Shown in pieces: positions 18,662-45,185 of a stretch of 45,185 nt of DNA. The position numbers and the translations under genes were made by a program. The stretch lies in the sequence record NC_048064.1; one strand, given 5' to 3'. Below the pieces are notes generated by a model. That model saw nothing but the letters and a program-made list of their open reading frames with translations. It did no database searches and was not told where the DNA came from. Numbering within the stretch: position 1 is the stretch's first letter; every line of letters begins with the position of its first letter. This stretch comes from Escherichia phage LL11.

Positions 18662-18662
18662 T

Positions 18663-19610: not shown

Positions 19611-19797
19611 TTCCATGAAGGCAACTCGTGCCGTTGAGGTGGCTGAGGCTATCTTTGAAACTTTATCCTGTGGCATGGAAGTGCCATATACTTTACTTGC
19701 TGATGCAGAAGAGCTTGGTCTTTCTGTAGAAGCTATCCAAGAGAAGGTTGAAGAACTCTATGGTACAGACGAAGAAGAAACCGACGATTTCATTTGA
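19582..19797 (+). CDS. hypothetical acidic protein (71 aa)
   Basis: ORF track; GGGAGAA RBS; acidic C-terminus. Confidence 0.45.
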   Translation: MTKMNQISFDSMKATRAVEVAEAIFETLSCGMEVPYTLLADAEELGLSVEAIQEKVEELYGTDEEETDDFI

Positions 19798-19801
19798 AGG
19801 G

Positions 19802-19930
19802 ATGGAGATGCTTGAGATGATTCTCAAGCCTTCCTCTCCGAAAGTGACTAAGACTCACGAAGAGTTAATAGTAGATGAAGTGAAGCGTTACATTATGGAT
19901 TGTGTCAGAGCACAACTGGTGGTTCGATGA
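19802..19930 (+). CDS. hypothetical small protein (42 aa)
   Basis: ATG 19802 with AAGGGA RBS; stop overlaps the GNAT start (ATGA). Confidence 0.3.
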   Translation: MEMLEMILKPSSPKVTKTHEELIVDEVKRYIMDCVRAQLVVR

Positions 19931-20388: not shown

Positions 20389-20397
20389 GGAGATAAC

Positions 20398-20607
20398 ATG
20401 GGTGTCGTGAAGAAGGCATTTAAAGCAATTGGTCTTGCACCCGATACGCCGAAAATTGAGGCAGCGAAAGTGCCAGCACAACAATTAGAACGTCAGCCTG
20501 AGACGGAAGCAGAAGATGTGACGCTGGGTCAGGACGAGGACACCACAACCACTTCTCGTGGTAAGCGTGGGTTAGTTCGCCCTGTAGCATCAAGCTTAGG
20601 AGTATAA
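20398..20607 (+). CDS. small virion-associated-type protein (gp6.7-like), tentative
   Basis: 69 aa low-complexity protein just upstream of the portal gene; AAGGAGA RBS. Confidence 0.4.
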   Translation: MGVVKKAFKAIGLAPDTPKIEAAKVPAQQLERQPETEAEDVTLGQDEDTTTTSRGKRGLVRPVASSLGV

Positions 20608-20611
20608 TATA

Positions 20612-23067: not shown

Positions 23068-23073
23068 TTCAGT

Positions 23074-23096
23074 ATTTACTGGACACTATAGAAGGG
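23074..23096 (+). promoter_or_regulatory. phage RNAP promoter for the major capsid gene
   Basis: ATTTACTGGACACTATAGAAGGG followed by leader hairpin GGGAGAAAAGTTCTCCC. Confidence 0.8.
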
Positions 23097-23146
23097 AGAA
23101 AAGTTCTCCCTAGTTATCAATTTGATTTATAAGGAGATTATAATAC

Positions 23147-24346: not shown

Positions 24347-24355
24347 TAACCTATG

Positions 24356-24390
24356 CCCTATCTACCTTGCGTAGGTAGGGTTCTTTTGTT
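24356..24390 (+). terminator. rho-independent terminator after the major capsid gene
   Basis: CCCTATCTACC-TTGCG-TAGGTAGGG stem-loop followed by TTCTTTTGTTT. Confidence 0.75.
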
Positions 24391-24401
24391 TAGGAGGATT
24401 C

Positions 24402-25142
24402 ATGCCTTTAATTCAAAATACAAGTGATGTAGGCCGTATCATGGCTGAGGCTTCCTTCAATATCATTGATAGCAAGCTGGAAGCAGTTAACCTGTGTATG
24501 CGAGCTATTGGTCGTGAGGGTGTGGATTCCCTTGACTCTGGCGACTTAGATGCTGAAGATGCTAATAAGATTATTGATATTGTATCCCAGCGGTTCCAGT
24601 ACAACAAGGGTGGTGGTTGGTGGTTTAACAGAGAACCTAATTGGCTACTTAAACCTGACACAAATGGTGAAGTAAACATGCCTAACAATTGTCTTGCTGT
24701 TCTCCAATGTTATGCTCTAGGTGAACGTAAAGTACCTATGACTATACGCGCAGGCAAGTTGTACTCTGTTTGGAATCACACTTTCGATATGTCAAAGTAT
24801 GTGAATCAGGATGGGCGTATTAGGTTGACTCTGGTGACATTACTGCCTTTCGAGCATCTACCTGCAAGTGTAATGCAGGCCATTGCCTATCAGGCTGCCG
24901 TAGAGTTTATTGTGTCTAAAGATGCAGATAAGACTAAACTACAAGCACACCAGCAGGTTGCAGCACAATTGATGATTGATGTTCAGTCAGAGCAGTCTTC
25001 TCAGAAGAGGCTTAATATGCTTGTACATAACCCCACTCAGCGCAACTTTGGCATCATGGCAGGTGGATCTCAGAATGTACCAGCGTTCTCCTATTCACCT
25101 TATGACACTTACCCTGTAAGGCCGTGGGAGGTTGATAGATAA
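24402..25142 (+). CDS. tail tubular protein A (gp11-like)
   Basis: 246 aa, first gene after the capsid terminator, followed by the large tail tube B gene. Confidence 0.8.
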   Translation: MPLIQNTSDVGRIMAEASFNIIDSKLEAVNLCMRAIGREGVDSLDSGDLDAEDANKIIDIVSQRFQYNKGGGWWFNREPNWLLKPDTNGEVNMPNNCLAVLQCYALGERKVPMTIRAGKLYSVWNHTFDMSKYVNQDGRIRLTLVTLLPFEHLPASVMQAIAYQAAVEFIVSKDADKTKLQAHQQVAAQLMIDVQSEQSSQKRLNMLVHNPTQRNFGIMAGGSQNVPAFSYSPYDTYPVRPWEVDR

Positions 25143-27547: not shown

Positions 27548-28272
27548 TGGCAGTAATGGCAACAGTAGGATCAAGCCTAGCCAGTATGTTCTCCAGTAGT
27601 GCAGGTGCTGCGGCTGCTAGTAGTGCTGCTGGTAGTGCCGCCGCTGGAAGTGGTGGTGTGCTTGGCTCTGTCGGAAGTTTCTTAGGTGGAAGCTCTGCTG
27701 GCTTTTCTAATGCAGGTTTGTTGTCTGCTGGATTACAAGGCTTAAACTTACTAGGCGGCCTATTCGGTGGACGAGATGCCGCTAAGGCTATGCAGAAAGC
27801 ACAAGAAGAAGAGTGGAGACAAAGGCTAGAAGCCACACGTGAAGCCTATTCTTCTGTGGCAAATGCAGAACGGTCTGCTGCAAAGCAATATCATTCTGAC
27901 TTCCTTAATAATCAAATTTCACTGATGCAGCAACGAGCGCAAGTTGCAGTAATGGCAGGTGCTACTGGAACAGGTGGTAGCTCCATCACATCCATGCTCA
28001 ATGATTTGACGGCAGAAGGTGGTCGTAATCAGTCAACCATTATAGATAATTATGAGAATCAGCAAATCAACTTTGCCAACCAGTTGAAGTCTATTCAACG
28101 CAGTGGACAGATGCAGATGCGAACGTTTGACAAACCTTCAGCTTTGGGTACTTTGGTGAAAGGTATACCAAGCCTTGCATCTTCCTATGTCACCGGAAGT
28201 AAAGTAGGTATGGCGCTTGGCAAGGCTATCACTGAGTCTCGTACTTATTCATCAGGAACTAGAGGAGTTTAA
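27547..28272 (+). CDS. internal virion protein A (Gly/Ala/Ser-rich)
   Basis: 241 aa with low-complexity N-terminal region; position after the tail tube genes. Confidence 0.7.
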   Translation: MAVMATVGSSLASMFSSSAGAAAASSAAGSAAAGSGGVLGSVGSFLGGSSAGFSNAGLLSAGLQGLNLLGGLFGGRDAAKAMQKAQEEEWRQRLEATREAYSSVANAERSAAKQYHSDFLNNQISLMQQRAQVAVMAGATGTGGSSITSMLNDLTAEGGRNQSTIIDNYENQQINFANQLKSIQRSGQMQMRTFDKPSALGTLVKGIPSLASSYVTGSKVGMALGKAITESRTYSSGTRGV

Positions 28273-31215: not shown

Positions 31216-31216
31216 T

Positions 31217-31260
31217 GTTATACTCAAGGTTTGTCTCACATGTGAGACATGCCTTTATGA
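31217..31260 (+). promoter_or_regulatory. conserved stop-adjacent element GTTATACTCAAGGT-hairpin-GCCTTTATGAAT (copy 2)
   Basis: Same flanking boxes as 13257-13297; here the hairpin is the palindrome TGTCTCACATGTGAGACA (31232-31249, family copy 6). Confidence 0.5.
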
Positions 31261-31282
31261 ATGACATTAATTAGGAGGTAAC

Positions 31283-34200
31283 ATGGTTGATAGTATTAAC
31301 CAAAATTGGGTGGCGGTGACTCAACGCAAGTTACCGCCTACCTTCTCTCAAGTTGCTGAAGCAGAGCGTAAGGCCGAAGTACAGAGAGCTAATGACAAAG
31401 TATTCCAAACAGCCATAGAGAGTGAGTGGGCTTTGTATGGTGGACAACGTGCCTATGAACGCCACACTACAGAGTTTGCTGAACAAGAAGGTTATGAAGT
31501 ACCTGAATCAACTAAGGATGAACTATCCAAGTTGTATGGGTATGAAATAGCGCAAGACATAGTCAAGAATGTGAAGTCTCCAGAAGAGTTGCAATTCCGT
31601 ATGTCTAATGCTGCTGCGGATAAAGACAGAGCAGACATCTTAGCACGTAATGGTTTCACAGGTTTCAGCGCACAGATTGCTGCTGGTATTCTTGACCCTG
31701 TAGGTTGGGCGGCTTCTCTAGTAGCTGCACCTGTAGCTGGTGCTGTCAAAGTAGGTCGTCTAGGTAGGATTATCAAGACGGCTGCCTTATCTGGTGCTGA
31801 AAATGCTGCATTAGAAGCTGTGCTTGCACAAGGTGATTACCAGCGAGGTGTCGATGATGTACTGGCTGCTGCCGGGTTTGGTATGATTATGGGCGGTACT
31901 ATTGGCGCTGCAACTAGGGAACGCATAGCCAGTGCTGGTTCTCGTACAGCGGCAGAGAGAGCAGAGGCTGTATTTGATGACTTGGACACCGTAGTAAAAG
32001 GTGCTGATGAGTTTGACTCGTCTGCTGCTCGTGCTGTACGTGAGGCCATGGAGTATGACGCGTATATGGCAGCACGTAATTATGAACCACTTCGTGCAAG
32101 AGAGGTGGATGCAGATATGGCAATTCTATCTCACACAGACAACTTGAAAGCCAATGCGTCGGTAAGGATGAGTGCTAGTGAGAAAGGACTACTGAAGAAA
32201 CAGATACGCCAACTGGAAGCAGAAGCAGCCACACTTAAGGGGAAGAAGATAGATGCTGTAGCAGAGGCTGCCGCCGCTAAGGGTGCACCTAAATCTGCTG
32301 CGGACAGATTGGATTTAGATGTTCAGAAGAAAGCACTGGCACGTAGATTCGATGAACCACTTGCTGATTTACAAGCGCGTCTTGATGAGTTGAATGCCAA
32401 GTTATCTCGTGCGAACAATGTAGGTAAGGCTAAGGAGGAGCTTAAGAGATTCTCATCGCTGTCCCGTGAAGATCAAATAAAGGAACTAGGTTTAGACGCA
32501 CCAATGCGTAAGGTGGAGATGACCCGTGCTGTACGAGATGCAGTAGCTGCAATCCGTGCCGAACGTAAGAAGACACCTACCGAGATACATGCTGAACAAG
32601 CTGCAGAAGAGGTAATCAAGCAAAAGGCAGATGACTCTATTGGTGCTAAACGTGTTGAAGGTTCAGAGATTGCAGGCGAGCAGTTTGACTTATCTAAAAA
32701 CATGGAAGAACTTATGGATGACTTGGCACGAGAAGCATATCAGTCAGAGGTGCGGCCTATTAATCTTAAGGGTCTAGGTTCAGTGTCTTCTGTGATTCTT
32801 AACTCAGAGAATCCTGTGTTCCGAGGTCTAGGTCTTCGTCTGCTTGAAAATGCTCAAGGTGGTGCATACCAAGGTAAGACAGCTGCTATCTTATCAGATG
32901 TGTATGGCAACCTTATTCGTCATGCAGAACGTAACAGGTACAATGATGGTTTCTCTCAATTCATCAAAGATAACAACCTACGTGCGGTAGATTATCTTAA
33001 CCCTGCAACGACACGGGATTTCAATAATCAGATTTATACAGCAATTGTTCGTGGCATACCAGAAGATACACCTCGTGGTGTTAAACTGGCAGCAGAAGGT
33101 ATCGCTGATAAACTCAAGAAAGCACTTGAGATTCGTAAGCAAGCAGGAGAGCATGGATTCGAAGATATACAATCTGCTAAGGATTACATCCCTGTTATCT
33201 ATGACGGTATCAAGGTTACTGAGGCAGTTAACAAATTGGGGAGTAGTGAGGCTGTTATTCACTTACTATCCAAAGGCTACCAGACAGGTAAGTACAAACT
33301 TGGCAAGAAAGCTGCGGATGCCCTAGCAAAAGTACAGTACATTCGTGCATCGGACTCCACCCTCTCTAGTCGTGTTGCATTCGATAGGGTGGTATCCCAG
33401 CAGCAGCAGGCTCAATTGATTGAGGATCTGAAGAAAGCAGGGGTACCAGACCATATCATTGATAATTTCATTGAAGGTACTGAATTAGCAGAAATGGCTG
33501 AATCGGTATCCAATCGAGCTAAAGCTAGTATGGGTATTAATACGCAAGCCGAATATGGCGGTTTGAAGGTGCAGGATTTGCTTAATACAAACGTAGGGGA
33601 GCTAGCGGAGAACTACGGCAAAGAGGCAGCGGGTGGTGCTGCATTGGCTGCTATGGGTTTCCCTACTCGCCAATCTGTGCTGAACGCAATAGATGCCGCA
33701 GAACGCGCAGGCCGCAATATGGCGGGGTCAAATGCTAAGGCAATCAAACAGCTTAGGTCTGAGGCAGAAATGCTCAGAGATGCCGTTAAGTTAATTTACG
33801 GCAACACTATTGACGCCGACCCTAACTCTGGAATTGTCAGGGGTACTCGACGTGTCCGTGAGATTACAGGGTTGTTACGATTAGGCCAAATGGGCTTCGC
33901 TCAGATACCTGAACTGGCACGTGCAATCTCTAAGATGGGACTAGGGACTGTGCTGAAGTCTGTACCTGCCACTAAGTTCTTACGTTCGAGAGCGGCTCGT
34001 AAAGGTGGCACTGCTCAGGGTGAGTTGCTTGAACCTGAACTGCGAGAAATGGAGGAACTCTTAGGTTATATCGGGGAAGATAACTGGCTCACAGGGTGGA
34101 ATGTCCGTCATGATGAGTTCGGAGAAACTGCGGATAACCTAGGTAAGCTGTCTGCTATTATTGATAACGGATTAGCTATGGGTAGTAGAATCAACACAAT

Positions 34201-35086
34201 ACTATCTGGTTTTAAAGCAGTACAAGGTGGCTCAGAGAAGATTATAGCTCGCTCTATCAATAAGCGACTAAAGCAACATTTGATGGGGGAGCGACAGTTA
34301 CCCAAAGCAGATCTTGAAGAAGTTGGCCTAAGTGAAGATGTCATGAAGAGACTTAAGCGTCACTTTGATGATAACCCAATGTACGCTGATTACAAAGGTG
34401 AAAAAGTTCGTATGATGAACTTTGATGCTATGGAGCCAGACCTGAGAGAGACAGTGGGTGTTGCTGTGCGAAGAATGTCAGGACGTCTTATTCAGCGTAA
34501 CTTCATAGGAGATGAAGGTATCTGGATGAATAAATGGTGGGGCAAGGCATTGACCCAGTTTAAGTCATTCTCTATTGTCTCTATTGAGAAACAGCTAATC
34601 CATGATTTACGAGGAGATAAGATTCAGGCTGCACAGATCCTTGCATGGTCTACCTTACTAGGCTATGTATCTTATGCACTACAGATGCAGATGCAAGCAA
34701 TTGGTAGGGAGGATAGAGACAAGTTCTTGAGGGATAAGTTCGAGACACAGAATATCGCTATGGGTGTCTTTAATAAACTCCCACAAGTTGCAGGCTTCGG
34801 TCTTGCTGGTGATGCTTTGGCAACATTTGGCCTAATGCCAGACTCTATGATGCAAGCGCCTGGACGTATGGGGTTCCGTCAGCAAGGGTTTGGTGATTTG
34901 GTAGCAGGTGCTGGTGTAATCAGTGATACAGTTAATTTGTCACAAGCACTAGTTAAGTATGCCAACGGAGATGATGATGTCTCTACTCGGCAGTTGGTGG
35001 ACAAGGTTCGTCGCCTTGTTCCTTTGGCAAATACTATTGGTGTAGGTCAGATGACTAAAGCCAGTGTAGACTTATTGGAGGATTGA
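31283..35086 (+). CDS. internal virion protein C (gp16-like, ejection protein)
   Basis: 1267 aa, largest gene, conserved position before the tail-fibre genes. Confidence 0.8.
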   Translation: MVDSINQNWVAVTQRKLPPTFSQVAEAERKAEVQRANDKVFQTAIESEWALYGGQRAYERHTTEFAEQEGYEVPESTKDELSKLYGYEIAQDIVKNVKSPEELQFRMSNAAADKDRADILARNGFTGFSAQIAAGILDPVGWAASLVAAPVAGAVKVGRLGRIIKTAALSGAENAALEAVLAQGDYQRGVDDVLAAAGFGMIMGGTIGAATRERIASAGSRTAAERAEAVFDDLDTVVKGADEFDSSAARAVREAMEYDAYMAARNYEPLRAREVDADMAILSHTDNLKANASVRMSASEKGLLKKQIRQLEAEAATLKGKKIDAVAEAAAAKGAPKSAADRLDLDVQKKALARRFDEPLADLQARLDELNAKLSRANNVGKAKEELKRFSSLSREDQIKELGLDAPMRKVEMTRAVRDAVAAIRAERKKTPTEIHAEQAAEEVIKQKADDSIGAKRVEGSEIAGEQFDLSKNMEELMDDLAREAYQSEVRPINLKGLGSVSSVILNSENPVFRGLGLRLLENAQGGAYQGKTAAILSDVYGNLIRHAERNRYNDGFSQFIKDNNLRAVDYLNPATTRDFNNQIYTAIVRGIPEDTPRGVKLAAEGIADKLKKALEIRKQAGEHGFEDIQSAKDYIPVIYDGIKVTEAVNKLGSSEAVIHLLSKGYQTGKYKLGKKAADALAKVQYIRASDSTLSSRVAFDRVVSQQQQAQLIEDLKKAGVPDHIIDNFIEGTELAEMAESVSNRAKASMGINTQAEYGGLKVQDLLNTNVGELAENYGKEAAGGAALAAMGFPTRQSVLNAIDAAERAGRNMAGSNAKAIKQLRSEAEMLRDAVKLIYGNTIDADPNSGIVRGTRRVREITGLLRLGQMGFAQIPELARAISKMGLGTVLKSVPATKFLRSRAARKGGTAQGELLEPELREMEELLGYIGEDNWLTGWNVRHDEFGETADNLGKLSAIIDNGLAMGSRINTILSGFKAVQGGSEKIIARSINKRLKQHLMGERQLPKADLEEVGLSEDVMKRLKRHFDDNPMYADYKGEKVRMMNFDAMEPDLRETVGVAVRRMSGRLIQRNFIGDEGIWMNKWWGKALTQFKSFSIVSIEKQLIHDLRGDKIQAAQILAWSTLLGYVSYALQMQMQAIGREDRDKFLRDKFETQNIAMGVFNKLPQVAGFGLAGDALATFGLMPDSMMQAPGRMGFRQQGFGDLVAGAGVISDTVNLSQALVKYANGDDDVSTRQLVDKVRRLVPLANTIGVGQMTKASVDLLED

Positions 35087-36045
35087 TGAGTTACACATTC
35101 ACTGAACATACAGCGAATGGCACTCAAACTACTTTCCCCTTCCGGTTCGCTGGGAGAGACAAGGGGTACTTGAGGGCTTCTGATATTTTAGTTGAAGTAA
35201 GAAATGATGGCGTGTGGAACACAGTAAGTGGTTGGACACTTACAGGTACTAACCAGATAACCTTTAATGTACCGCCAGCGGCAAATACAAAACTTCGTAT
35301 CAGGCGCGTTGTAGAGAAAGAAGAACCTTACGCCGAGTTTGACCGTGGTGTAACCTTGGATATGAAATCTCTCAATAACTCCTTTATACATCTTTTGGAA
35401 GTATCTCAGGAGCTACTGGATGGTTTCTATCCAGATGGTTACTTTGTAAAGCAAGAGGTATCTTGGGGTGGACATAAGATTACTGATTTGGCTGATGGCA
35501 CAAATCCGGGAGATGCAGTAAATAAAGGACAGCTTGATTCCATCGACAAGAAGCATACAGATTGGAACGCCAAACAGGACATTGAGATTGCTGGTCTTAA
35601 AGCTGGTATGACTTCTGGTATTGCGCACAGAACTGTTCCTTGGTACACGATAGCCCAAGGTGGTGAGATTTCCGTAAAGCCCCCTTATGAATTTCAAGAT
35701 GCACTAGTTTTCCTTAATGGGGTATTACAGCACCAAATTGTAGGCGCATACTCTATAAGCAACAACACTATCACTTTCGCAGAGCCGCTTGTGGCTGGTA
35801 CAGAGGTGTATGTGTTGGTAGGTAGTCGTGTTGCTACATCTGAACCTAATATTCAGTTAGAGTTGAATTTTGACTTAGTAGAAGGCCAACAAGTAGTAAA
35901 GATTGGCTCTGCATTTAAGTATATTGAGGTTTATCTTGATGGACTATTACAACCTAAACTTACTTATCGGGTAGATGGTGACACTGTTACTTTCTCAGAG
36001 GGAGTGCCAGAATGCCGGATGACTGCTAAGATTATCACAGAATAA
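35086..36045 (+). CDS. tail fibre / tailspike adaptor protein (gp17 N-terminal domain-like)
   Basis: 319 aa; ATG 35086 overlapping the gp16-like stop; N-terminal region typical of T7 gp17-like tail attachment domains; no enzymatic domain. Confidence 0.75.
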   Translation: MSYTFTEHTANGTQTTFPFRFAGRDKGYLRASDILVEVRNDGVWNTVSGWTLTGTNQITFNVPPAANTKLRIRRVVEKEEPYAEFDRGVTLDMKSLNNSFIHLLEVSQELLDGFYPDGYFVKQEVSWGGHKITDLADGTNPGDAVNKGQLDSIDKKHTDWNAKQDIEIAGLKAGMTSGIAHRTVPWYTIAQGGEISVKPPYEFQDALVFLNGVLQHQIVGAYSISNNTITFAEPLVAGTEVYVLVGSRVATSEPNIQLELNFDLVEGQQVVKIGSAFKYIEVYLDGLLQPKLTYRVDGDTVTFSEGVPECRMTAKIITE

Positions 36046-36054
36046 GGAGGTGGG

Positions 36055-36249
36055 ATGATTAACTCCGAACTGGTAGATAGTGGTGTGAAGCTTGCGCCAC
36101 CTGCACTCGTATCAGGTGGGTACTTCCTCGGTATCAGTTGGGATAATTGGGTGTTAATAGCAACATTCATTTATACCGTGTTGCAAATTGGGGACTGGTT
36201 TTATAATAAGTTCAAGATTTGGAGGGAGAAGCGTGAGCGTACACAATAA
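36055..36249 (+). CDS. holin (T7 gp17.5-like, class II)
   Basis: 64 aa; one transmembrane helix WVLIATFIYTVLQIG and a charged C-terminus; pattern parallels T7 gp17.5 from memory. Confidence 0.7.
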   Translation: MINSELVDSGVKLAPPALVSGGYFLGISWDNWVLIATFIYTVLQIGDWFYNKFKIWREKRERTQ

Positions 36250-36532
36250 ACATGCAGCTACAGAGGATGAGGTTGGCATTCTGCATGGTGCTATTACCAA
36301 AATCTTCAATAAGAAAGCACAGGCAATACTGGACACTATAGAAGAAGACCCTGATGCAGCATTACATTTAGTGTCTGGTAAGGATATTGGTGCGATGTGT
36401 AAGTGGGTTCTTGATAACGGCATTACCGCCACACCTGCTGCACAGCAGGAAGAGTCCAAGTTATCTAAGCGCCTCAAGGCTATCAGAGAGGCATCCAGTG
36501 GTAAGATAATTCAATTCACTAAGGAGGGTTGA
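36233..36532 (+). CDS. terminase small subunit (gp18-like)
   Basis: GTG 36233 preceded by GGAGGGAG; about 99 aa; immediately upstream of the large terminase gene; no ATG available near the 5' end. Confidence 0.6.
   Translation: MSVHNKHAATEDEVGILHGAITKIFNKKAQAILDTIEEDPDAALHLVSGKDIGAMCKWVLDNGITATPAAQQEESKLSKRLKAIREASSGKIIQFTKEG
36324..36346 (+). promoter_or_regulatory. phage RNAP promoter inside the small terminase gene
   Basis: CAATACTGGACACTATAGAAGAA; positions -13 to +6 match consensus. Confidence 0.5.
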
Positions 36533-38430
36533 TGGCTAAGGCAAGAGAATCACAAGCAGAGGCTCTTGCCAGATGGGAGATGCTACAGGAGTTACAGCAG
36601 ACCTTTCCGTACACATCGGAAGGTTTGCTTCTCTTTGCAGACACAGTTATTCATAACTTGATTGCAGGCAACCCTCATCTGATTCGTATGCAGGCTGATA
36701 TCTTGAAGTTCCTATTCTACGGACACAAGTACCGCCTCATCGAAGCGCCTCGTGGTATCGCTAAGACAACACTATCAGCAATCTATACGGTATTCCGTAT
36801 TATTCATGAACCGCATAAGCGTATCATGGTTGTGTCCCAAAACGCCAAGCGAGCAGAGGAAATCGCAGGTTGGGTAGTTAAAATCTTCCGTGGCTTAGAC
36901 TTTCTTGAGTTTATGCTGCCGGATATCTACGCTGGGGACCGTGCATCCGTTAAGGCGTTTGAGATTCATTACACCCTACGTGGTAGTGATAAGTCTCCTT
37001 CTGTATCCTGTTACTCAATCGAAGCAGGTATGCAGGGTGCTCGTGCTGATATTATTCTAGCGGATGACGTAGAGTCGATGCAGAATGCTCGTACGGCAGC
37101 GGGCCGTGCCTTGCTTGAGGAACTGACTAAGGAGTTTGAATCTATCAACCAGTTTGGGGATATCATTTACCTTGGTACACCTCAGAACGTAAACTCTATC
37201 TACAACAACCTACCTGCTCGTGGTTACTCTGTTCGTATCTGGACTGCGCGTTACCCTTCAGTAGAGCAAGAGCAATGTTATGGCGACTTCCTTGCACCTA
37301 TGATTGTTCAAGATATGAAGGACAACCCAGCACTTCGCTCAGGGTACGGGTTGGATGGTAATAGTGGTGCACCTTGTGCCCCTGAAATGTATGATGATGA
37401 AGTCCTGATTGAGAAGGAAATCTCTCAGGGTGCTGCTAAGTTCCAGCTTCAGTTCATGCTTAACACTCGCATGATGGATGCTGACAGATACCCATTACGC
37501 CTGAACAATCTAATCTTCACCTCGTTTGGTACAGAGGAAGTCCCTGTGATGCCTACGTGGAGTAATGATTCCATAAACATCATTGGTGATGCACCTAAGT
37601 ATGGTAACAAGCCTACGGATTTCATGTACAGACCTGTAGCTCGCCCATACGAATGGGGTGCTGTCTCCCGCAAGATTATGTATATCGACCCTGCGGGTGG
37701 TGGTAAGAACGGAGATGAGACGGGTGTAGCCATCGTATTCCTGCACGGCACATTCATTTATGTGTATAAGTGCTTTGGTGTACCTGGCGGATACCGAGAG
37801 TCGTCCCTGAATCGCATTGTGCAGGCCGCAAAGCAGGCTGGTGTTAAAGAGGTATTCATTGAGAAGAACTTTGGTCATGGCGCGTTTGAGGCGGTAATTA
37901 AGCCGTACTTTGAACGAGAGTGGCCTGTAACTCTGGAAGAGGATTACGCCACCGGACAGAAAGAGTTGCGTATCATTGAGACGCTGGAGCCGCTCATGGC
38001 AGCCCATAGGCTTATCTTCAATGCAGAGATGGTGAAGTCAGACTTTGAGTCGGTACAGCACTATCCGCTTGAACTACGCATGTCCTACAGTCTTTTCAAT
38101 CAAATGTCGAACATAACGATTGAGAAGAACAGCCTCCGGCACGATGACCGCCTAGACGCCCTGTATGGCGCTATACGGCAATTAACTTCTCAGATAGACT
38201 ATGACGAGGTTACTCGAATTAATCGCCTCAGAGCGCAGGAGATGCGTGATTATATACAGGCGATGAATACACCTAGGCTTCGTCGGGCCATGCTGTACGG
38301 TGATTATGGTGATGAGCGAAGAACAACTAACACCTCTCTAGCGATGCAGCAGAGGGTTTACGGGCAGGACTACCGAAATAAATCGGCAAGCAGAAATACA
38401 CTTTCTGCAAGGATTTCAAGGACTTATTAA
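36532..38430 (+). CDS. terminase large subunit (gp19-like)
   Basis: 632 aa; ATPase N-terminal domain with Walker A-like APRGIAKT and nuclease C-terminal domain; AAGGAGG RBS. Confidence 0.93.
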   Translation: MAKARESQAEALARWEMLQELQQTFPYTSEGLLLFADTVIHNLIAGNPHLIRMQADILKFLFYGHKYRLIEAPRGIAKTTLSAIYTVFRIIHEPHKRIMVVSQNAKRAEEIAGWVVKIFRGLDFLEFMLPDIYAGDRASVKAFEIHYTLRGSDKSPSVSCYSIEAGMQGARADIILADDVESMQNARTAAGRALLEELTKEFESINQFGDIIYLGTPQNVNSIYNNLPARGYSVRIWTARYPSVEQEQCYGDFLAPMIVQDMKDNPALRSGYGLDGNSGAPCAPEMYDDEVLIEKEISQGAAKFQLQFMLNTRMMDADRYPLRLNNLIFTSFGTEEVPVMPTWSNDSINIIGDAPKYGNKPTDFMYRPVARPYEWGAVSRKIMYIDPAGGGKNGDETGVAIVFLHGTFIYVYKCFGVPGGYRESSLNRIVQAAKQAGVKEVFIEKNFGHGAFEAVIKPYFEREWPVTLEEDYATGQKELRIIETLEPLMAAHRLIFNAEMVKSDFESVQHYPLELRMSYSLFNQMSNITIEKNSLRHDDRLDALYGAIRQLTSQIDYDEVTRINRLRAQEMRDYIQAMNTPRLRRAMLYGDYGDERRTTNTSLAMQQRVYGQDYRNKSASRNTLSARISRTY

Positions 38431-38451
38431 TTACTGGACACTATAGAAGGA
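38429..38451 (+). promoter_or_regulatory. phage RNAP promoter overlapping the terminase stop
   Basis: AATTACTGGACACTATAGAAGGA. Confidence 0.75.
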
Positions 38452-38523
38452 AGGCCCAGATAATAAGAGAAAATAATAGGTAATATATAGGTTAACCTAG
38501 GTTATATAGGTATGCCTTAGTAT

Positions 38524-38543
38524 GGGTGTACTCCTGTACACCC
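38524..38543 (+). other. perfect hairpin GGGTGTAC-TCCT-GTACACCC in late leader
   Basis: 8-bp perfect stem with 4-nt loop, downstream of an AT-rich stretch that shares AGGTTATATAGGT with the origin-like region at 6042-6054. Confidence 0.4.
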
Positions 38544-38587
38544 TATTCCTTACTTCCTTACTATATTTACATAATAGGAGAGAGACA

Positions 38588-38866
38588 ATGGCTAATGATT
38601 ATAGTAGTCAACCATTAACAGGTAAGTCTAAGAGAAAGCAGGTACAACCTGTAAGTGAAGAACTAATGCTTCCGGTAATCCCAAAAGAGGAAGCTAGTAA
38701 GAAAATCAATGTTATTAATGATGCCACCAAATCAGGTAAACAGAAAGGGGCCATGGTGTGCCTTGAAGTGGAAGGTGGTGTATTGAAGATTGCTATCGCG
38801 GTTGATGGCAAAGAAGATTCAGAGTGGAAGTTAGTAACAGTGGAAACCCCTGTTACCCCAGTTTAA
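38588..38866 (+). CDS. hypothetical late protein, paralog A (92 aa)
   Basis: ATG 38588 with AGGAGAGAG RBS; shares the block SGKQKGAMV-LE and a C-terminal ...VTP... with the next ORF. Confidence 0.55.
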   Translation: MANDYSSQPLTGKSKRKQVQPVSEELMLPVIPKEEASKKINVINDATKSGKQKGAMVCLEVEGGVLKIAIAVDGKEDSEWKLVTVETPVTPV

Positions 38867-38883
38867 GAGAAGGAGGAGATTAC

Positions 38884-39171
38884 ATGGCTAAATATGGTGA
38901 AGGTTCTGTTACTGGTCAGGCTTTTCGAGTAAAAGCAGTACAAACTATTGCAACGGCAATCCCGATGCCTGTTGTTAAAGAAGCAGACCTTAAGAGAAAA
39001 GATCACCCTATCAACATCAAACACCTGTCAGGTAAGCAGAAAGGTGCAATGGTTGCTCTTGAGAAAGATGACACAACCATGCATATTGCTGTTGCACGTG
39101 GCAGTGAACCCACAGACTCATGGGATGTAACTGGTATGGAAGAGGCCGCTGTTACTCCAGCAGGGGAATAA
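38884..39171 (+). CDS. hypothetical late protein, paralog B (95 aa)
   Basis: ATG 38884 with AAGGAGGAG RBS; tandem paralog of 38588-38866. Confidence 0.55.
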   Translation: MAKYGEGSVTGQAFRVKAVQTIATAIPMPVVKEADLKRKDHPINIKHLSGKQKGAMVALEKDDTTMHIAVARGSEPTDSWDVTGMEEAAVTPAGE

Positions 39172-39173
39172 TA

Positions 39174-39518
39174 ATGCTTAATAAATACTTCAAGCGTAAA
39201 GAGTTTGCTTGCCGTTGTGGGTGCGGTACATCTACTGTTGATGCTGAATTACTACAGGTAGTCACAGATGTGCGTGAGCACTTTGGTTCTCCTGTAGTTA
39301 TCACATCGGGACATCGCTGTATTAAGCACAATGCCAATGTAGGTGGAGCTAAGAACTCCATGCATCTTACTGGTAAGGCTGCTGACATTAAAGTGTCTGG
39401 CATATTACCTTCTGAAGTGCATAAGTATCTTACTAGCAAATACCAAGGCAAGTATGGTATCGGTAAGTATAACTCCTTCACTCACATCGATGTACGGGAT
39501 GGTTGTGCGCGATGGTAA
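39174..39518 (+). CDS. peptidase M15-type zinc peptidase (putative endolysin)
   Basis: 114 aa; SGHRC...N, GGAKNSMHLTGKAADI and HID blocks match the zinc ligands of M15/VanY-like cell-wall peptidases; N-terminal CxCGCG motif. Confidence 0.75.
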   Translation: MLNKYFKRKEFACRCGCGTSTVDAELLQVVTDVREHFGSPVVITSGHRCIKHNANVGGAKNSMHLTGKAADIKVSGILPSEVHKYLTSKYQGKYGIGKYNSFTHIDVRDGCARW

Positions 39519-39626
39519 GATGTGTTGAATGATGTGAGCGTATGGTTGCCCAAGCTGCCGAGGATGGCAACTATGATGACTGGAAGAACTACTCTGACTT
39601 GTTAGCTCAATGGAAAGGGAGATGCA

Positions 39627-39776
39627 ATGAAAAAGCTGTTTAAGTCTAAGAAGGTTGTAGGTGCACTGGTTGCACTTGTTATTGCTCTTGTTTCTGTAGG
39701 TCTTGGTGTAGACCTTGGCTCTGGCACGGAATCCTCTGTGACAGATGTGGTCTGCCAAGTGATCACCTGTGAATAA
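39627..39776 (+). CDS. small membrane protein (49 aa), possible lysis accessory
   Basis: MKKLFKSKKVVGALVALVIALVSVGLGV... with one transmembrane helix; between endolysin and spanins. Confidence 0.4.
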   Translation: MKKLFKSKKVVGALVALVIALVSVGLGVDLGSGTESSVTDVVCQVITCE

Positions 39777-39990
39777 GTTTCTAGAAGTTCTGGCAGGTCT
39801 TATTGGCCTGCTTGTCTCTGCTAAGAAGAAACAAGAAGAGAAGGAGGCACAAAGTGAAGCGAATCATGTTAGTGACAACCCTTCTGATTGGTTCGCTGAC
39901 CACTTCCGGGTGTCAGCAGGCGTTACCAGAGAAAGCAATGGTGAAACCTCTGAGGCCGACGCTGACGGAAGTTTACGAGGTAGACGATAA
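39769..39990 (+). CDS. putative i-spanin (Rz-like)
   Basis: N-terminal transmembrane helix FLEVLAGLIGLLV followed by a charged periplasmic region; contains the start of an overlapping lipoprotein ORF in the +1 frame. Confidence 0.5.
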   Translation: MNKFLEVLAGLIGLLVSAKKKQEEKEAQSEANHVSDNPSDWFADHFRVSAGVTRESNGETSEADADGSLRGRR

Positions 39991-40063
39991 GGTCTGCTTT
40001 AGTAATCCTGACGCTACAAAACTTGGTTTGTACATTCTCTCGCTAGAACGCGGATACAATTAA
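39854..40063 (+). CDS. putative o-spanin (Rz1-like lipoprotein), overlapping the i-spanin
   Basis: GTG 39854 6 nt after AGGAGG; signal-like KRIMLVTTLLIGSLTTSG followed by Cys (lipobox-like); extends beyond the i-spanin stop. Confidence 0.5.
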   Translation: MKRIMLVTTLLIGSLTTSGCQQALPEKAMVKPLRPTLTEVYEVDDKVCFSNPDATKLGLYILSLERGYN

Positions 40064-40092
40064 TACATAGCTTTATGTATCAGTGTCTTATG

Positions 40093-40115
40093 ATTTACTG
40101 GACACTATAGAAGAG
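40093..40115 (+). promoter_or_regulatory. phage RNAP promoter for the tailspike genes (exact consensus)
   Basis: ATTTACTGGACACTATAGAAGAG followed by leader hairpin GCGCCGTTC-TTTT-GAGCGGC. Confidence 0.8.
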
Positions 40116-40194
40116 GTAAGATAGCGCCGTTCTTTTGAGCGGCCTATTACTAGCCAATCTTCATAGGGAGGGTTGGAAAGTAATAGGAGATAGC

Positions 40195-42093
40195 ATGGCT
40201 AAATTAACCAAACCTAATACTGAAGGAATCTTGCATAAAGGACAATCTTTGTATGAGTACCTTGATGCGAGAGTTTTAACATCAAAGCCGTTTGGTGCTG
40301 TAGGTGACGCCACTACTGATGATACTGTGGTTATAGCTGATTCATTAAACTCTCAGAAAGCTGTCACAGTCTCAGACGGTGTATTCTCTAGCTCTGGTAT
40401 TAATAGTAATTACTGTAACTTAGACGGCAGGGGTAGTGGCGTGCTAAGTCACCGTTCAAGTACAGGTAACTACTTAGTATTTAACAATCTACGTGCAGGT
40501 CGCTTAAGTAATATTACGGTAGAAAGTAATAAGGCGACTGATACAACTCAGGGACAGCAGGTCTCCCTTGCTGGTGGAAGTGATGTTACTGTAAGTGACG
40601 TTAACTTCTCAAACGTTAAAGGTACTGGTTTCAGTTTAATCGCATACCCTAATGATGCGCCACCGGATGGACTTATGATTAAAGGCATTCGAGGTAGCTA
40701 TTCCGGCTATGCTACTAATAAGGCAGCCGGATGCGTACTTGCTGACTCCTCAGTTAACTCCCTCATAGATAACGTCATTGCTAAGAACTACCCTCAGTTC
40801 GGAGCAGTAGAGTTGAAAGGTACAGCCAGTTACAACATAGTCAGTAATGTTATAGGGGCAGATTGCCAGCATGTAACTTACAACGGCACTGTAGGGTCAA
40901 TAGCTCCCTCTAATAACCTTATCAATGGGGTAGTGGCTAATAATCCTAAGTATGCAGCGGTTGTTGCAGGCAAAGGTAGTACGAACTTAATCTCAGACGT
41001 GCTCGTAGATTACTCAACTTCTGATGCGAGGCAGGCTCATGGTGTTACCGTAGAAGGGTCTGATAACGTCATAAATAATGTGCTTATGTCAGGGTGTGAT
41101 GGTACTAACTCTTTAGGACAAGGGCAGACTGCTATAATTGCACGCTTTATAGGTACAGCTAATAACAACTATGCGTCTGTATTTCCTAGCTACAGTGCTA
41201 CAGGTGTTATTACTTTCGAATCCGGCTCTACCCGTAACTTCGTAGAGGTAAAGCACCCGGGCAGGAGAAACGACCTTCTCAGCTCTGCTAGTACTATTGA
41301 CGGTGCAGCTACTATTGACGGCACTAATAATAGTAACGTAGTGCACGCACCTGCATTAGGGCAGTACATAGGTAGTATGTCAGGTAGGTTCGAATGGCGG
41401 ATTAAGTCCATGTCACTGCCTTCAGGCGTTCTTACTTCTGCTGATAAGTACAGAATGCTTGGGGATGGTGCTGTGTCATTAGCTGTAGGTGGAGGCACTT
41501 CTTCTCAAGTTCGCCTATTTACTTCTGATGGTACTTCTCGGACAGTGTCCCTCACCAACGGTAACGTGCGTCTTTCTACCAGTAGCACAGGCTATTTGCA
41601 GTTAGGTGCTGATGCAATGACCCCAGATAGTACTGGTACATACGCCTTAGGTTCCGCCAGTCGAGCATGGTCTGGCGGTTTTACTCAAGCAGCATTCACT
41701 GTTACCTCAGATGCTCGGTGTAAAACAGAACCTCTTACTATCTCAGATGCCTTACTGGATGCTTGGTCTGAAGTTGACTTTGTGCAGTTTCAGTATTTGG
41801 ATCGTGTTGAGGAGAAGGGTGCAGACTCAGCTAGATGGCACTTCGGTATCATCGCCCAGCGAGCTAAGGAGGCCTTCGAACGTCACGGTATAGATGCACA
41901 TCGCTATGGCTTCTTGTGCTTCGACAGTTGGGATGATGTATACGAGGAAGATGCCAATGGCTCTCGTAAACTGATTACACCAGCAGGTTCCCGCTACGGT
42001 ATTCGTTACGAGGAAGCACTGATATTAGAGGCTGCGTTGATGCGGCGGACTGTTAAGCGTATGCAGGAAGCACTAGCTTCCATGCCTAAGTAA
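40195..42093 (+). CDS. tailspike 1: beta-helix depolymerase with C-terminal intramolecular chaperone (peptidase S74-type) domain
   Basis: 632 aa from ATG 40195 (AGGAGA RBS); Ser/Thr/Gly/Asn-rich repetitive beta-helix middle; C-terminus SDARCK ... ARWHFGIIAQRAKEAFERHGIDAHRYGFLCFDSWDD matches the autoproteolytic chaperone module of endosialidase/K5-lyase-type tailspikes. Confidence 0.85.
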   Translation: MAKLTKPNTEGILHKGQSLYEYLDARVLTSKPFGAVGDATTDDTVVIADSLNSQKAVTVSDGVFSSSGINSNYCNLDGRGSGVLSHRSSTGNYLVFNNLRAGRLSNITVESNKATDTTQGQQVSLAGGSDVTVSDVNFSNVKGTGFSLIAYPNDAPPDGLMIKGIRGSYSGYATNKAAGCVLADSSVNSLIDNVIAKNYPQFGAVELKGTASYNIVSNVIGADCQHVTYNGTVGSIAPSNNLINGVVANNPKYAAVVAGKGSTNLISDVLVDYSTSDARQAHGVTVEGSDNVINNVLMSGCDGTNSLGQGQTAIIARFIGTANNNYASVFPSYSATGVITFESGSTRNFVEVKHPGRRNDLLSSASTIDGAATIDGTNNSNVVHAPALGQYIGSMSGRFEWRIKSMSLPSGVLTSADKYRMLGDGAVSLAVGGGTSSQVRLFTSDGTSRTVSLTNGNVRLSTSSTGYLQLGADAMTPDSTGTYALGSASRAWSGGFTQAAFTVTSDARCKTEPLTISDALLDAWSEVDFVQFQYLDRVEEKGADSARWHFGIIAQRAKEAFERHGIDAHRYGFLCFDSWDDVYEEDANGSRKLITPAGSRYGIRYEEALILEAALMRRTVKRMQEALASMPK

Positions 42094-42100
42094 GCAACAG

Positions 42101-42132
42101 GCAGTGCGTAAGCACTGCTTTTCACGCAACTT
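42101..42132 (+). terminator. rho-independent terminator between the two tailspike genes
   Basis: GCAGTGC-GTAA-GCACTGC stem-loop followed by TTTTCACGCAACTTTTCTT. Confidence 0.7.
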
Positions 42133-42178
42133 TTCTTAAAGGTTATCATGGTGGTAGCCTTTCAGAAAAGGAGGTTAC

Positions 42179-43891
42179 ATGCTTCAAAGATTAAGTGCTT
42201 ACTTGGTGAAGTACAAGAGTAAACTAACAGGTACTATTGAGCGCCTGCTATCTGATAAACTATCGGATACAATAGATGTTGCGGATTTTGGAGTTAATCC
42301 CTCTTCTAATGACAACAGGCGAGCCCTTCAAGCTGCATTCAATGCGGTCAGATTGCTAGGCGGTGGTACTGTATCAGTCACTAAAGCTGGCGAATATAAA
42401 CTCAGTGGCACTGTTGAGATATTTGCTAATACACACTTCAAGGTTGCTAAAGGTGTAACATTTGTACGTGACTACGAAACAGGAGATACGCTATTCAGAT
42501 TATCACAAGGGCAAGCTAGTAATGTAACAGTCAGTGGAGGTGTCTATGAAGGCAATGGTCACACTAAAGGGGATACACCTTTTGTAGTATTTGCATCTAC
42601 TAGTAATAATGATTTGAAGTTTGAAGGCATAACAGTTAACAATGTAGTGGACTACCACGCCATAGATTTAGCAGATTGGAACAACGTAGTTATTCGTGAT
42701 TGTAAATTCCTAGGGTTTAAGAATACAGGCAGTCGTAACTTCTCAGAGGCTATACAGTTAGACCCAGGTCTTATTACAGTTGGTCACTATGTACAGTCAA
42801 GCGGTATGCTGGTGGAGAATTGCTATGCTGGTCCAAACCCAGAATCCGGGTTTGGGGGTTATGGTGCACTAATCGGAAATCACGCCTCAGCTTATGGTGT
42901 ACAGGACAACAATATCCGTATCTTGAATTGCACTACAGATGGTGCTCTCTTTGCAGGTGTACGTGTATTTAACTGGAAAAACTGGACAGTACGTGGTTGC
43001 ACCTTTAGAAACTCTAATGCAAGGGGTGTTCATGTTACACCTGTCTCCTCTCAAACTAAACCGCAAGGGACTCGACAAGGTAGTGTTGTAGATTGTACTT
43101 TTGATGGCGTAAGAACACCAGTGCTAATTGCTGCACCATCTTGGCCTTTTACCGATATTAGTGACATTTGGCATGACCATATTGAAATTTCTAATAATAC
43201 TATGATCCTCACAGAGGATGTATCCTATGGTGTAGATGCAAGGTGGTGTAAGAATTTAATTGTAAAAGGTAATACAGGCTCTGGTGGCTTAGGGTTAATC
43301 GGTTTACGCTTTGGGACAAAATACCACATCGAAGGTAATACTTGGGAAAACGGAAGAGGTAGTGGGATTTGGTTAGGTGAGTCTGATGCTACTACATTCA
43401 TTGGTACTGGTTTATCAGGAGAAGGTATACTTAGTCGTAATATCTTCTCTAAATTAGGGCAATATGGTATTCATGTAAACTGCAAGGCTAGCGGTCTAGT
43501 GGTTAAAGCTAATAATATGAAGGAAGTATCTACCGCTGAAGCAGGTAGACACTTCATTAGTATAGACACAGGAGCTAACAACATCCTAGTAGAAGGTAAT
43601 ATTGGAGTAGATGGAGAGAGCCTTAACAAGCCAAGCCTTGGTATTCGTGTTACTTCTTCTTGCTCCAATATTAAACTAATTGGCAATGATTGCTATGGTA
43701 CGCAAGCACCTCAGAATAACCAAGGGGTCGGTTCTAGTACGGTGATTGTCTATGGACTAAATGGCAATCCTACAACTTTAGGTGTAGGTGCACCTGTCGG
43801 TTCTTTGGCAACGGATATTAATGGGTCTGGTGGTAGTACATTGTACATTAAAGAATCTGGTACATCTGCTCAAGGTTGGGTTGCAAAGTAG
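42179..43891 (+). CDS. tailspike 2: second beta-helix (pectate-lyase-fold-like) receptor-binding protein
   Basis: 570 aa; AAAAGGAGG RBS; repetitive Gly/Asn/Val/Thr-rich sequence with Asn ladders typical of right-handed beta-helix depolymerases; no C-terminal chaperone module. Confidence 0.8.
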   Translation: MLQRLSAYLVKYKSKLTGTIERLLSDKLSDTIDVADFGVNPSSNDNRRALQAAFNAVRLLGGGTVSVTKAGEYKLSGTVEIFANTHFKVAKGVTFVRDYETGDTLFRLSQGQASNVTVSGGVYEGNGHTKGDTPFVVFASTSNNDLKFEGITVNNVVDYHAIDLADWNNVVIRDCKFLGFKNTGSRNFSEAIQLDPGLITVGHYVQSSGMLVENCYAGPNPESGFGGYGALIGNHASAYGVQDNNIRILNCTTDGALFAGVRVFNWKNWTVRGCTFRNSNARGVHVTPVSSQTKPQGTRQGSVVDCTFDGVRTPVLIAAPSWPFTDISDIWHDHIEISNNTMILTEDVSYGVDARWCKNLIVKGNTGSGGLGLIGLRFGTKYHIEGNTWENGRGSGIWLGESDATTFIGTGLSGEGILSRNIFSKLGQYGIHVNCKASGLVVKANNMKEVSTAEAGRHFISIDTGANNILVEGNIGVDGESLNKPSLGIRVTSSCSNIKLIGNDCYGTQAPQNNQGVGSSTVIVYGLNGNPTTLGVGAPVGSLATDINGSGGSTLYIKESGTSAQGWVAK

Positions 43892-43902
43892 TAGGAGGTT
43901 GA

Positions 43903-44052
43903 ATGCCCTTAATCAAATCAGTTAAGCAAAGTGCTGTACGTCAGAACACAGAGGAACTTATTCAATCAGGACGTGACCCTAAGCAAGCCTATGCGATTGC
44001 CAAGGATGTACAACGTCGTGCCATGAAGAAACCTTCTGCATCTTCTGCGTAA
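43903..44052 (+). CDS. hypothetical small basic protein (49 aa)
   Basis: ATG 43903 with AGGAGG RBS; MPLIKSVKQSAVRQNTEELIQSGRDPKQAYAIAKDVQRRAMKKPSASSA. Confidence 0.35.
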   Translation: MPLIKSVKQSAVRQNTEELIQSGRDPKQAYAIAKDVQRRAMKKPSASSA

Positions 44053-44078
44053 GCAGGTTAATATCTTAGGAGGTAATT

Positions 44079-44540
44079 GTGGAAATTTGGAGGCCTATTG
44101 CTGGTATACCAGATTACATGGTTTCCTCCTTTGGTCGTGTTAGATCTCATAAAAGAGGTAAGGTTACTATACTAAACCCTCCGCACGACAAAGGAGGTTA
44201 TCGTAATGTTGTGCTACGTGCTAATGGTGAAAAGATAAATCGCAAGGTACATAGGCTTGTGGCAGAGGCTTTCTTACCTAATCCTCGCGGTCTACCTCAA
44301 GTAAATCACAAGGATGAAGTAAGAGACAATAATCATGTAAGTAATCTGGAGTGGTGTGATTGTGCATACAACGTAGATTACTCTCAAGCAGCTACTTATA
44401 TTGTGATGTGCCCTAAAGGTAATATATTAGTAGTAAGGAATGTGGCTAAGTTTTGTAGGGAAAACGGATTAAGCAGTGGTTCTTTTACAGATATGCTTAA
44501 GGGAAGACGTAAGCAACATAAGGGTTATCGCTTAGTGTAA
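44079..44540 (+). CDS. HNH homing endonuclease (paralog 3 of 3)
   Basis: GTG 44079 5 nt after AGGAGG; MEIWRPIAGIPDYMVSSFGRVRS, HRLVAEAF, NHKD...NNH..NLEW, C-terminal QHKGY; last gene before the terminal region. Confidence 0.8.
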   Translation: MEIWRPIAGIPDYMVSSFGRVRSHKRGKVTILNPPHDKGGYRNVVLRANGEKINRKVHRLVAEAFLPNPRGLPQVNHKDEVRDNNHVSNLEWCDCAYNVDYSQAATYIVMCPKGNILVVRNVAKFCRENGLSSGSFTDMLKGRRKQHKGYRLV

Positions 44541-44598
44541 TACTTAGTGAGAGAGCCATACATGCCAAGTGGAAAATTTGATATGTATATGCGTCAAG

Positions 44599-44640
44599 TG
44601 TCTCGCCCTCGCCCTCGCCGGGTTGTCCCCATAGGGTGGC
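44599..44640 (+). other. candidate genome left terminus / start of terminal repeat (TCTCGCCCTCGCCCTCGCC...)
   Basis: T7-type genomes begin TCTC...; three tandem CCCTCG units followed by GTCCCCATAGGGTGG, reminiscent of the T7 left-end CCCCCATAGGGGG; the window appears to span the end-to-end junction. Confidence 0.35.
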
Positions 44641-44822
44641 CTGAGGGAATCCGTCTTCGACGGGCAGGGCTGATGTACTCCTTGGATAGTACAAGGGAGG
44701 CCGAGGGAGCGCCTAGGACGGCCTAGGGAATGGCTTAGTGGTGGACAAGGTGATTACCTTAGTGAAGCCTCTTAGTGCATTCCTGAGGCTATTCAGGGCC
44801 ATTCCTGAGTGTTTGACAGGGT

Positions 44823-44850
44823 GGGGGAGGGGGGGGGGGAGGGGCGTGGG
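44823..44850 (+). repeat. G-rich tract with an 11-nt poly-G run
   Basis: GGGGGAGGGGGGGGGGGAGGGGCGTGGG in the terminal non-coding region. Confidence 0.8.
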
Positions 44851-44904
44851 CTATCTGTTCGTTTCGTTCACTCCGCTTGCGCTCCGTTCACTCGCTCACG
44901 TGTA

Positions 44905-45031
44905 CCTTAGGTTATTCCTTGATGGATAGCTTAGGTTAGCCTTAGTGGACTACCTTAGTTAAAGCCTTAGTGCTTAGCTTAGTATCAGCTTAGTAGTGTA
45001 CCTTAGTCAGACTTAGTGTCTTCTCTTAGTG
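44905..45031 (+). repeat. array of about 11 CTTAGT-type heptamer repeats in the terminal non-coding region
   Basis: CCTTAGG, GCTTAGG, CCTTAGTG, CCTTAGTT, CCTTAGTG, GCTTAGC, TTAGTA, CTTAGTAG, CCTTAGTC, ACTTAGTG, TCTTAGTG at irregular 8-13 bp spacing; further copies at 44757, 44769, 45174 and at 21, 57, 68; analogous to the CCTAAAG repeats at the T7 left end. Confidence 0.7.
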
Positions 45032-45185
45032 ATTGCACATGCAAGCATGTAAGATGCCATTAGGTCGCGGTCGGTAGACCGCTAAGAAGAGGTAATAGTA
45101 ATAAGATGCAGTAGGAGGAACACCAGAAACCTAGCCAACCTAGCCTATCCTAGCTCTGTATCTATTACTTTTCCTTAGTCTCACA

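Follow-up and report, generated by a model that had tools for sequence, protein, structure and literature searches.

In phage T7, the packaging signal consists of PacB plus PacC (the pacB/pacC model; PMC9860248), and a polymerase-lysozyme complex pausing at the concatemer junction reportedly interacts with gp18 and gp19, which starts maturation and packaging (PMC3276506). The sequence found at this junction, ATCTGTT, is a class II pause and termination signal of T7 RNA polymerase, and class II termination by that enzyme is reportedly abolished by any base change in the signal (bioRxiv 10.1101/2021.01.11.426313; PMC11617373). Among SP6-like phages, UAB_Phi78 was found to have a short direct terminal repeat by run-off sequencing, with Bal31 treatment also used (PMC4837284). 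Permuted database deposits are the expected artefact when genomes with short terminal repeats are assembled from short reads (PMC10438801). For the comparisons made here, the T7 architecture was taken directly from the T7 sequence. T7 also carries an array of CCTAAAG heptamers at its left end that has been implicated in concatemer processing. To our knowledge the function of this heptamer array is not established even in T7, and a full-text search of the literature for CCTAAAG returned no paper that supports a role of the array in concatemer processing.

The window (the whole stretch of 45,185 nucleotides analysed here, from Escherichia phage LL11, NC_048064.1) is, to judge from its sequence, a circularly permuted and repeat-collapsed assembly of a Vectrevirus phage (K1-5/K1E-like; Autographiviridae, Molineuxvirinae). 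In a nucleotide search with positions 1-25000, 63 records matched over at least 80% of that length, and the nearest Vectrevirus records were 91-93% identical over 90-93% of it. Megablast matched the terminal region to 82 phage records and blastn to 111; nearly all belong to Vectrevirus, Zindervirus (SP6-like) or related Molineuxvirinae, and identity to the Vectrevirus records is 88-93%. The window encodes a single-subunit RNA polymerase (ORF 3242-5869, with RNA_pol and RPOL_N matches), a small terminase like T7 gp18 (36188-36532; DNA_Packaging_2 match, E = 7e-16) and a T7-type, gp19-like large terminase (36529-38430; Terminase-T7_RNaseH-like match, E = 2e-35). It also has 11 strong SP6-type phage promoters (consensus ATTTACTGGACACTATAGAAGAG), all on the + strand. 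The weight matrix derived from them scores at most 3.7 in the terminal zone, versus at least 30 at the real sites, and the zone therefore has no phiOL or phiOR analogue. The last phage promoter is at 40102 and none lies near the junction, so a polymerase has to read through 4.5 kb to reach it. Taken as a whole, the terminal region very probably serves an SP6/K1-5-like phage as its concatemer junction and as the control region of its leading end.

The position of the physical ends can be inferred by homology. Linear records of relatives start at window position 44601 (EEc2, EEc4 and R4596), 44602 (VEc3 and Ro_P3a) or 44603 (K1-5), so that the starts of these six differ by no more than 2 nt. Position 3 of SP6 aligns to 44601, so SP6 would start at 44599, and the K1E record also opens with TCTCGCC. 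A preliminary description of this DNA had proposed that the window spans the physical end junction and that the true genome start is near 44599; both proposals agree with the homologous starts, which place the left end at 44601 +/- 2, within 2 nt of that estimate. The same description had the segment begin at 44560 with TCTCGCCCTCGCCCTCGCC, a sequence that is indeed present but at 44601-44619, and it correctly noted GTCCCCATAGGGTGG, which occupies 44625-44639.

Exact terminal repeats with zero mismatches are found in the records of K1-5 (234 bp), Ro_P3a (283), VEc3 (304), R4596 (285), SP6 (174) and K1E (288). Terminal repeats of 174 and 234 bp were reportedly given by Scholl et al. 2004, in agreement with our values for SP6 and K1-5. 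In six of six relatives with both repeats the right boundary in the left copy falls between GGGCTA and (A)TCTGTTCG. In the window GGGCTA ends at 44853, and the repeat is therefore 44601-44853 (253 bp); the range of 174-304 bp among relatives is due to indels in the middle of the repeat. Since the repeat is found only once in the window and relatives are contiguous across the step from 45185 to 1, the record represents a repeat-collapsed assembly opened at an arbitrary point. From the exact repeats of six relatives at homologous boundaries we infer that 44601-44853 is duplicated at both ends, and the virion DNA is predicted to be linear, with a length of about 45,185 + 253 = 45,438 bp. Two published descriptions of relatives depart from the sequences: the terminal repeat annotated in the UAB_Phi78 record (1-180) is set about 16 nt to the left of the SP6 boundaries, and the paper describing R4596 gives a 428-bp repeat where the deposited record has an exact repeat of 285 bp.

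The features at and around the predicted repeat are as follows.

44079-44540: HNH homing-endonuclease gene with NUMOD4, HNH_3 and I-HmuI NUMOD-like domains, directly left of the junction.
44566..44600, + strand: conserved block CAAGTGGAAAATTTGATATGTATATGCGTCAAGTG, directly left of the terminal repeat; in virion DNA the unique sequence ends with it and the right-hand repeat follows.
44601..44853, + strand: predicted direct terminal repeat of 253 bp, present as a single collapsed copy; left end 44601 +/- 2, right end 44853.
44602..44619, + strand: (CTCGCC)x3, detected by Tandem Repeats Finder at the extreme left end; the T before it makes the genome open with TCTC.
44627..44636, + strand: CCCCATAGGG dyad, at repeat position 27.
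44651..44663, + strand: hairpin-capable CCGTC-TTC-GACGG (CCGTCTTCGACGG) within the repeat.
44734..44777, + strand: three CTTAGTG copies in the repeat (44734, 44758 and 44771), kept in all Vectrevirus relatives.
44819..44844, + strand: G-rich tract GGGTGGGGGAGGGGGGGGGGGAGGGG, which includes a run of 11 G.
44853..44859, + strand: ATCTGTT, lying across the right repeat boundary, with T-rich CGTTTCGTT after it.
44860..44893, + strand: pyrimidine-rich spacer with the direct repeat CGTTTCGTTCACTC / CGCTCCGTTCACTC, kept in R4596, G9 and LI10P5 and variable in others.

The strongest mechanistic landmark of the region is ATCTGTT, a putative pause signal that the preliminary description did not mention. 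The window holds a single + strand copy (six are on the - strand). K1-5, SP6 and T7, searched as complete genomes, each likewise have one + strand copy, which lies at the repeat boundary (positions 234, 174 and 161, respectively). In T3, of which 700 nt were examined, ATCTGTT is at 232, directly after the 231-bp repeat. The depletion of + strand copies is not significant in any single genome (the fraction of shuffles with as few copies was 0.14-0.25), and the argument for ATCTGTT thus rests on its position: chance cannot explain a lone copy at this boundary in two lineages with only short motifs in common. The sole exception noted is Klebsiella phage ULIP33, with ATCTATT at the homologous boundary; given that any change abolishes class II termination by T7 polymerase, the pause signal is not universal in the subfamily. 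Our literature search found no report of SP6/K1-5-type polymerases responding to ATCTGTT. The preliminary description had listed a tandem CGTTCACTC pair, and two copies are present in the pyrimidine-rich spacer (44865-44873 and 44885-44893); these are 20 bp apart from start to start and form a direct repeat that is not strictly tandem.

Conservation across the region is concentrated in three stretches, namely 44566-44640 (the left block and the first 40 nt of the repeat), 44841-44865 (the right boundary with ATCTGTT) and 45037 to about 30. Permuted relatives align from window position 44567 onward, and 15 of the 25 columns in 44566-44590 are invariant. Klebsiella and Proteus phages retain 80-83% identity over 44573-44642, which would fit a site of terminase recognition or cleavage, and by analogy with pacB of T7 and T3 we regard 44566..44600 as a candidate terminase recognition site. 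To its left, the inserted HNH gene separates the terminal repeat from the gp48 homologue (43903-44052). Among database phages this gene is common only to vB_Ec-G9; other relatives have the small gene 49 in its place.

Several elements inside the repeat vary in sequence between relatives. The (CTCGCC)x3 sequence is invariant in Vectrevirus, with SP6 carrying CTCGGCCTCGGCCTCGCC, and at the CCCCATAGGG dyad K1E has a perfect 12-bp palindrome, CCCCATATGGGG. The hairpin at 44651-44663 is present in the minimum-energy and centroid folds, and VEc3 and vB_Ec-G9 hold its exact reverse complement, CCGTCGAAGACGG, such that the stem is kept and the loop flipped. The G-rich tract falls within a hypervariable G/T-rich stretch between invariant TTGACAGGGTG and GGGCTA, and its length exceeds that of the tract in any relative or examined IMG/VR contig by 15 nt. 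An exact IMG/VR search for the window's tract gave no match, and the six related contigs returned by a gapped-pattern search all carry shorter tracts. Errors in homopolymer sequencing or in assembly could account for the run of 11 G; alternatively, the tract could be a real expansion able to form a G-quadruplex beside the pause site. The repeat is C-rich at its left end (44601-44619; GCCCTCGCCC) and G-rich at its right end (44841-44853; GCCCACGCCC, given as the reverse complement); the two ends are imperfect inverted copies of one another and pair in the single-strand fold (z = -2.5).

Two candidate elements were discarded. Symmetric cleavage sites formed by inverted GCCCnCGCCC at both boundaries were considered and dropped, as SP6 has GGCCTCGGCC on the left and no matching change on the right. 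A conserved TTGACA at 44811 was rejected as a promoter: it cannot be one in the window, where the G-rich expansion moves any -10 hexamer to a distance of about 31 nt. A sigma-70 scan found no + strand promoter inside 44560-45185, and scanning 43800-45185 and 1-1500 against Rfam yielded just one match, to a lncRNA, which at E = 0.49 is not credible.

To the right of the repeat, the region continues over the break in the assembly and up to the first early promoter with these features.

44906..45031, + strand: core array of 11 CTTAG(T/G/C) copies in one orientation, consensus CTTAGTG, spacing 10-13 bp.
45037..45185, continuing to about 30, + strand: near-invariant non-coding block of about 180 bp, between the array and the first early promoter.
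45037-45050, + strand: dyad ACATGC-AA-GCATGT, inside the near-invariant block.
45050 and 45102, + strand: two copies of TAAGATGC, inside the block.
45067-45082, + strand: invariant hairpin GCGGTC-GGTA-GACCGC, inside the block.
45130-45154, + strand: three copies of CCTAGC, inside the block.
45174, + strand: CTTAGT, inside the block.
1..75, + strand: continuation over the assembly break, with the end of the invariant block and CTTAGT at 22, 59 and 69, the last abutting the -35 hexamer.
76..104, + strand: first host-type (sigma-70) early promoter, TTGACA-17-TACATT, 10/12 matches, its position conserved in relatives.

The CTTAG(TG) array is strongly enriched at this place and on this strand. The 125-bp core (44906-45030) contains 11 + strand CTTAG copies, where the frequency in the rest of the genome predicts 0.11 (Poisson P of about 7e-19), and a wider zone of 933 bp that wraps the window end (44531..278) contains 21 versus 0.82 expected, with only one on the opposite strand. 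For the whole window the count of CTTAGT is 55, versus 31.7 +/- 5.9 in shuffles. The CTTAGTG consensus is supported by T at +5 in 18 of the 21 copies and G at +6 in 12 of them. The preliminary description had counted about 17 heptamers of the CTTAGT type and had them continue into positions 1-75; we find 18 in 44560-45185 plus 1-75 (15 CTTAGT and three CTTAG(G/C)), all on the + strand. Past the window end the array copies are at 22, 59, 69 and 273.

Across ten phages, 41 of 55 columns are invariant in the array cores versus 29 of 81 in the spacers, and the array is present in SP6, UAB_Phi78, ULIP33 and IMG/VR contigs, being conserved across Vectrevirus and Zindervirus. To the left of the right-hand repeat the window has two CTTAGTG copies, at 44531 (inside the end of the HNH gene) and 44543, and none is found there in K1-5, SP6, K1E, R4596 or LI10P5. 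These two copies come from the last codons and the 3' flank of the HNH gene. Most likely the array marks the left end as a platform for protein binding at multiple sites; this assignment is the weakest step of the mechanism proposed below.

In the near-invariant block, 17-21 of the 25 columns per bin are invariant from Vectrevirus to Zindervirus. The dyad at 45037-45050 reads ATAGCT-AA-AGCTAT in R4596, K1E and ULIP33, with four positions changed on both arms, and is by this comparison maintained by compensatory change. Scans of the block for promoters, RNA families and ORFs gave no match. The block might be a cis-acting element of SP6-like phages not described for T7, such as a promoter-independent replication origin or a genome-entry or packaging checkpoint in place of phiOL, with the CTTAGTG array as its protein-loading platform, but we regard this idea as doubtful.

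The first early promoter exists in two alternative modules among relatives. TTGACA-17-TACATT is joined to one upstream sequence (31-104) in the window, K1E, VEc3 and SP6, and a different module with TTGACA-17-TACTAT is common to K1-5, R4596, G9 and LI10P5. This grouping crosses genus boundaries, which suggests recombination. Further into the early region, TCTTTAACAAT occurs three times (259-269, 1044-1054 and 1307-1317), and K1-5 and SP6 also have three copies each. The copy at 1044 includes GCTCTTTAACAATCTGG, identical to T7 at about 812-828, between promoter A3 and gene 0.3, the location of the R0.3 RNase III site. Early transcripts are probably processed by RNase III at these conserved TCTTTAACAAT copies.

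By analogy with T7 and T3, these features suggest the following sequence of events. Replication would produce head-to-tail concatemers with one repeat copy per junction, and the phage RNA polymerase, reading rightward from upstream, would pause at ATCTGTT on the right repeat boundary. The T7-type terminase may then recognise the conserved block left of the repeat and, as the repeat is being duplicated, cut at 44600/44601 and 44853/44854. The SP6-group counterpart of the T7 CCTAAAG array would be the CTTAG(TG) array, which lies just inside the left end. The left end, with the array and the early promoter, would enter the next cell first, where the host-polymerase promoter at 76-104 would drive early transcription of the entering DNA.

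The genome end could also be placed correctly and the CTTAG array nevertheless be unrelated to packaging, its copies serving as sites for host or early phage factors in internalisation or early-promoter use. We consider this unlikely, though less so than the other alternatives. With both promoter modules, array copies run up to the early promoter and abut its -35 hexamer (CTTAGTGTTGACA), which makes a role in entry or early transcription a live alternative. The further CTTAG copy at 273 lies after the first RNase III-like site, the T7 motif also occurs within the A1 promoter region, and the weak or absent counterpart array left of the right-hand repeat would fit a left-end-specific function. 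However, no protein is known or predicted to bind the CTTAG motif, and the three copies inside the repeat are hence at the right end too.

Much less probable is that the replicon is truly circular, or that headful packaging yields permuted ends with no fixed end at 44601. The window does behave as if circular, with the region present once, and many relatives are deposited in permuted form, but such deposits are what short-read assembly of short terminal repeats is expected to yield (PMC10438801). Moreover, boundaries coincide among the exact terminal repeats of six relatives whose records are not permuted, the terminase is T7-type, and for UAB_Phi78 run-off sequencing and Bal31 were used (PMC4837284).

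That the region encodes small proteins is similarly hard to credit. ORFs of 59 aa (44547-44726) and 63 aa (44738-44929) exist, and MZ234020, UAB_Phi78 and others annotate CDSs here as 'hypothetical proteins'. Nevertheless, ORFs of at least 40 aa are missing in five of nine relatives and differ in frame and position in the rest, those of the region have no Pfam match, indels are not multiples of three, and conservation tracks repeats and dyads, not codons. The region is thus non-coding, as first described. Finally, a functionless low-complexity tract produced by chance or slippage, with which modest Tandem Repeats Finder scores and varying spacer lengths between copies would agree, is effectively refuted by the enrichment (P < 1e-18), the single orientation and the conservation of the array across two genera, in cores more than in spacers.

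The reading as a concatemer junction and leading end has mainly annotation value. The genome should be re-opened at 44601 and the 253-bp repeat placed at both ends, which brings its length to about 45,438 bp; small 'hypothetical protein' ORFs over the region should not be called genes. The element is already known in the K1-5/SP6-like phage group, and none of it is new in kind. K1-5, K1E and SP6 are about 80-93% identical to the window over 44567-45185 and have the same left terminus (TCTCGCC...) and the same right boundary between GGGCTA and TCTGTTCG; the CTTAG array, the invariant block and the position of the early promoter are likewise in common. Differences are the HNH gene left of the junction, which the three lack, and the length of the repeat, which at 253 bp compares with 234 (K1-5), 288 (K1E) and 174 (SP6) owing to mid-repeat indels and the 15-nt G-rich expansion unique to the window.

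Between T7 or T3 and the window, no nucleotide homology is detectable at the junction beyond short motifs. T7 and T3 nevertheless open with TCTC, as the preliminary description had stated for T7-type genomes, and so does the window at 44601. T7 and the window also both have CCCCATAGGG at position 27 and three short repeats within the terminal repeat (CCTAAAG in T7, CTTAGTG in the window), and their terminase and RNA polymerase families are the same. The terminal repeat is 160 bp in T7, 231 bp in T3 and 253 bp in the window. ATCTGTT is at the right repeat boundary in all three and is the sole + strand genome copy in T7 and the window, although the boundary falls one base into the signal in the window (A/TCTGTT) and just before it in T7 and T3.

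After the repeat, T7 has its array at 175-334 with 13-bp spacing, and the window has its own at 44906-45031 with 10-13 bp spacing, also in the same orientation. The window array is preceded by a pyrimidine-rich spacer. This common layout agrees with the analogy drawn in the preliminary description. The unit is CTTAGTG in the window and CCTAAAG in T7, however, so the window array is an analogue of the T7 array and not its sequence homologue. A counterpart left of the right-hand repeat has several copies in T7 but is weak in the window (two copies) and absent in several relatives. Between the array and the host promoters, T7 carries phiOL whereas the window has the near-invariant, promoter-less block, and no phage promoter in the window is equivalent to phiOL or phiOR; the host promoters themselves are A1-A3 in T7 and the sigma-70 promoter at 76-104 in the window. 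T7/T3 and the SP6 group thus have one junction layout despite sharing only a few short motifs, and this common layout, with ATCTGTT on the boundary followed by an array of short repeats on the same strand, supports a shared polymerase-coupled maturation mechanism across the family.
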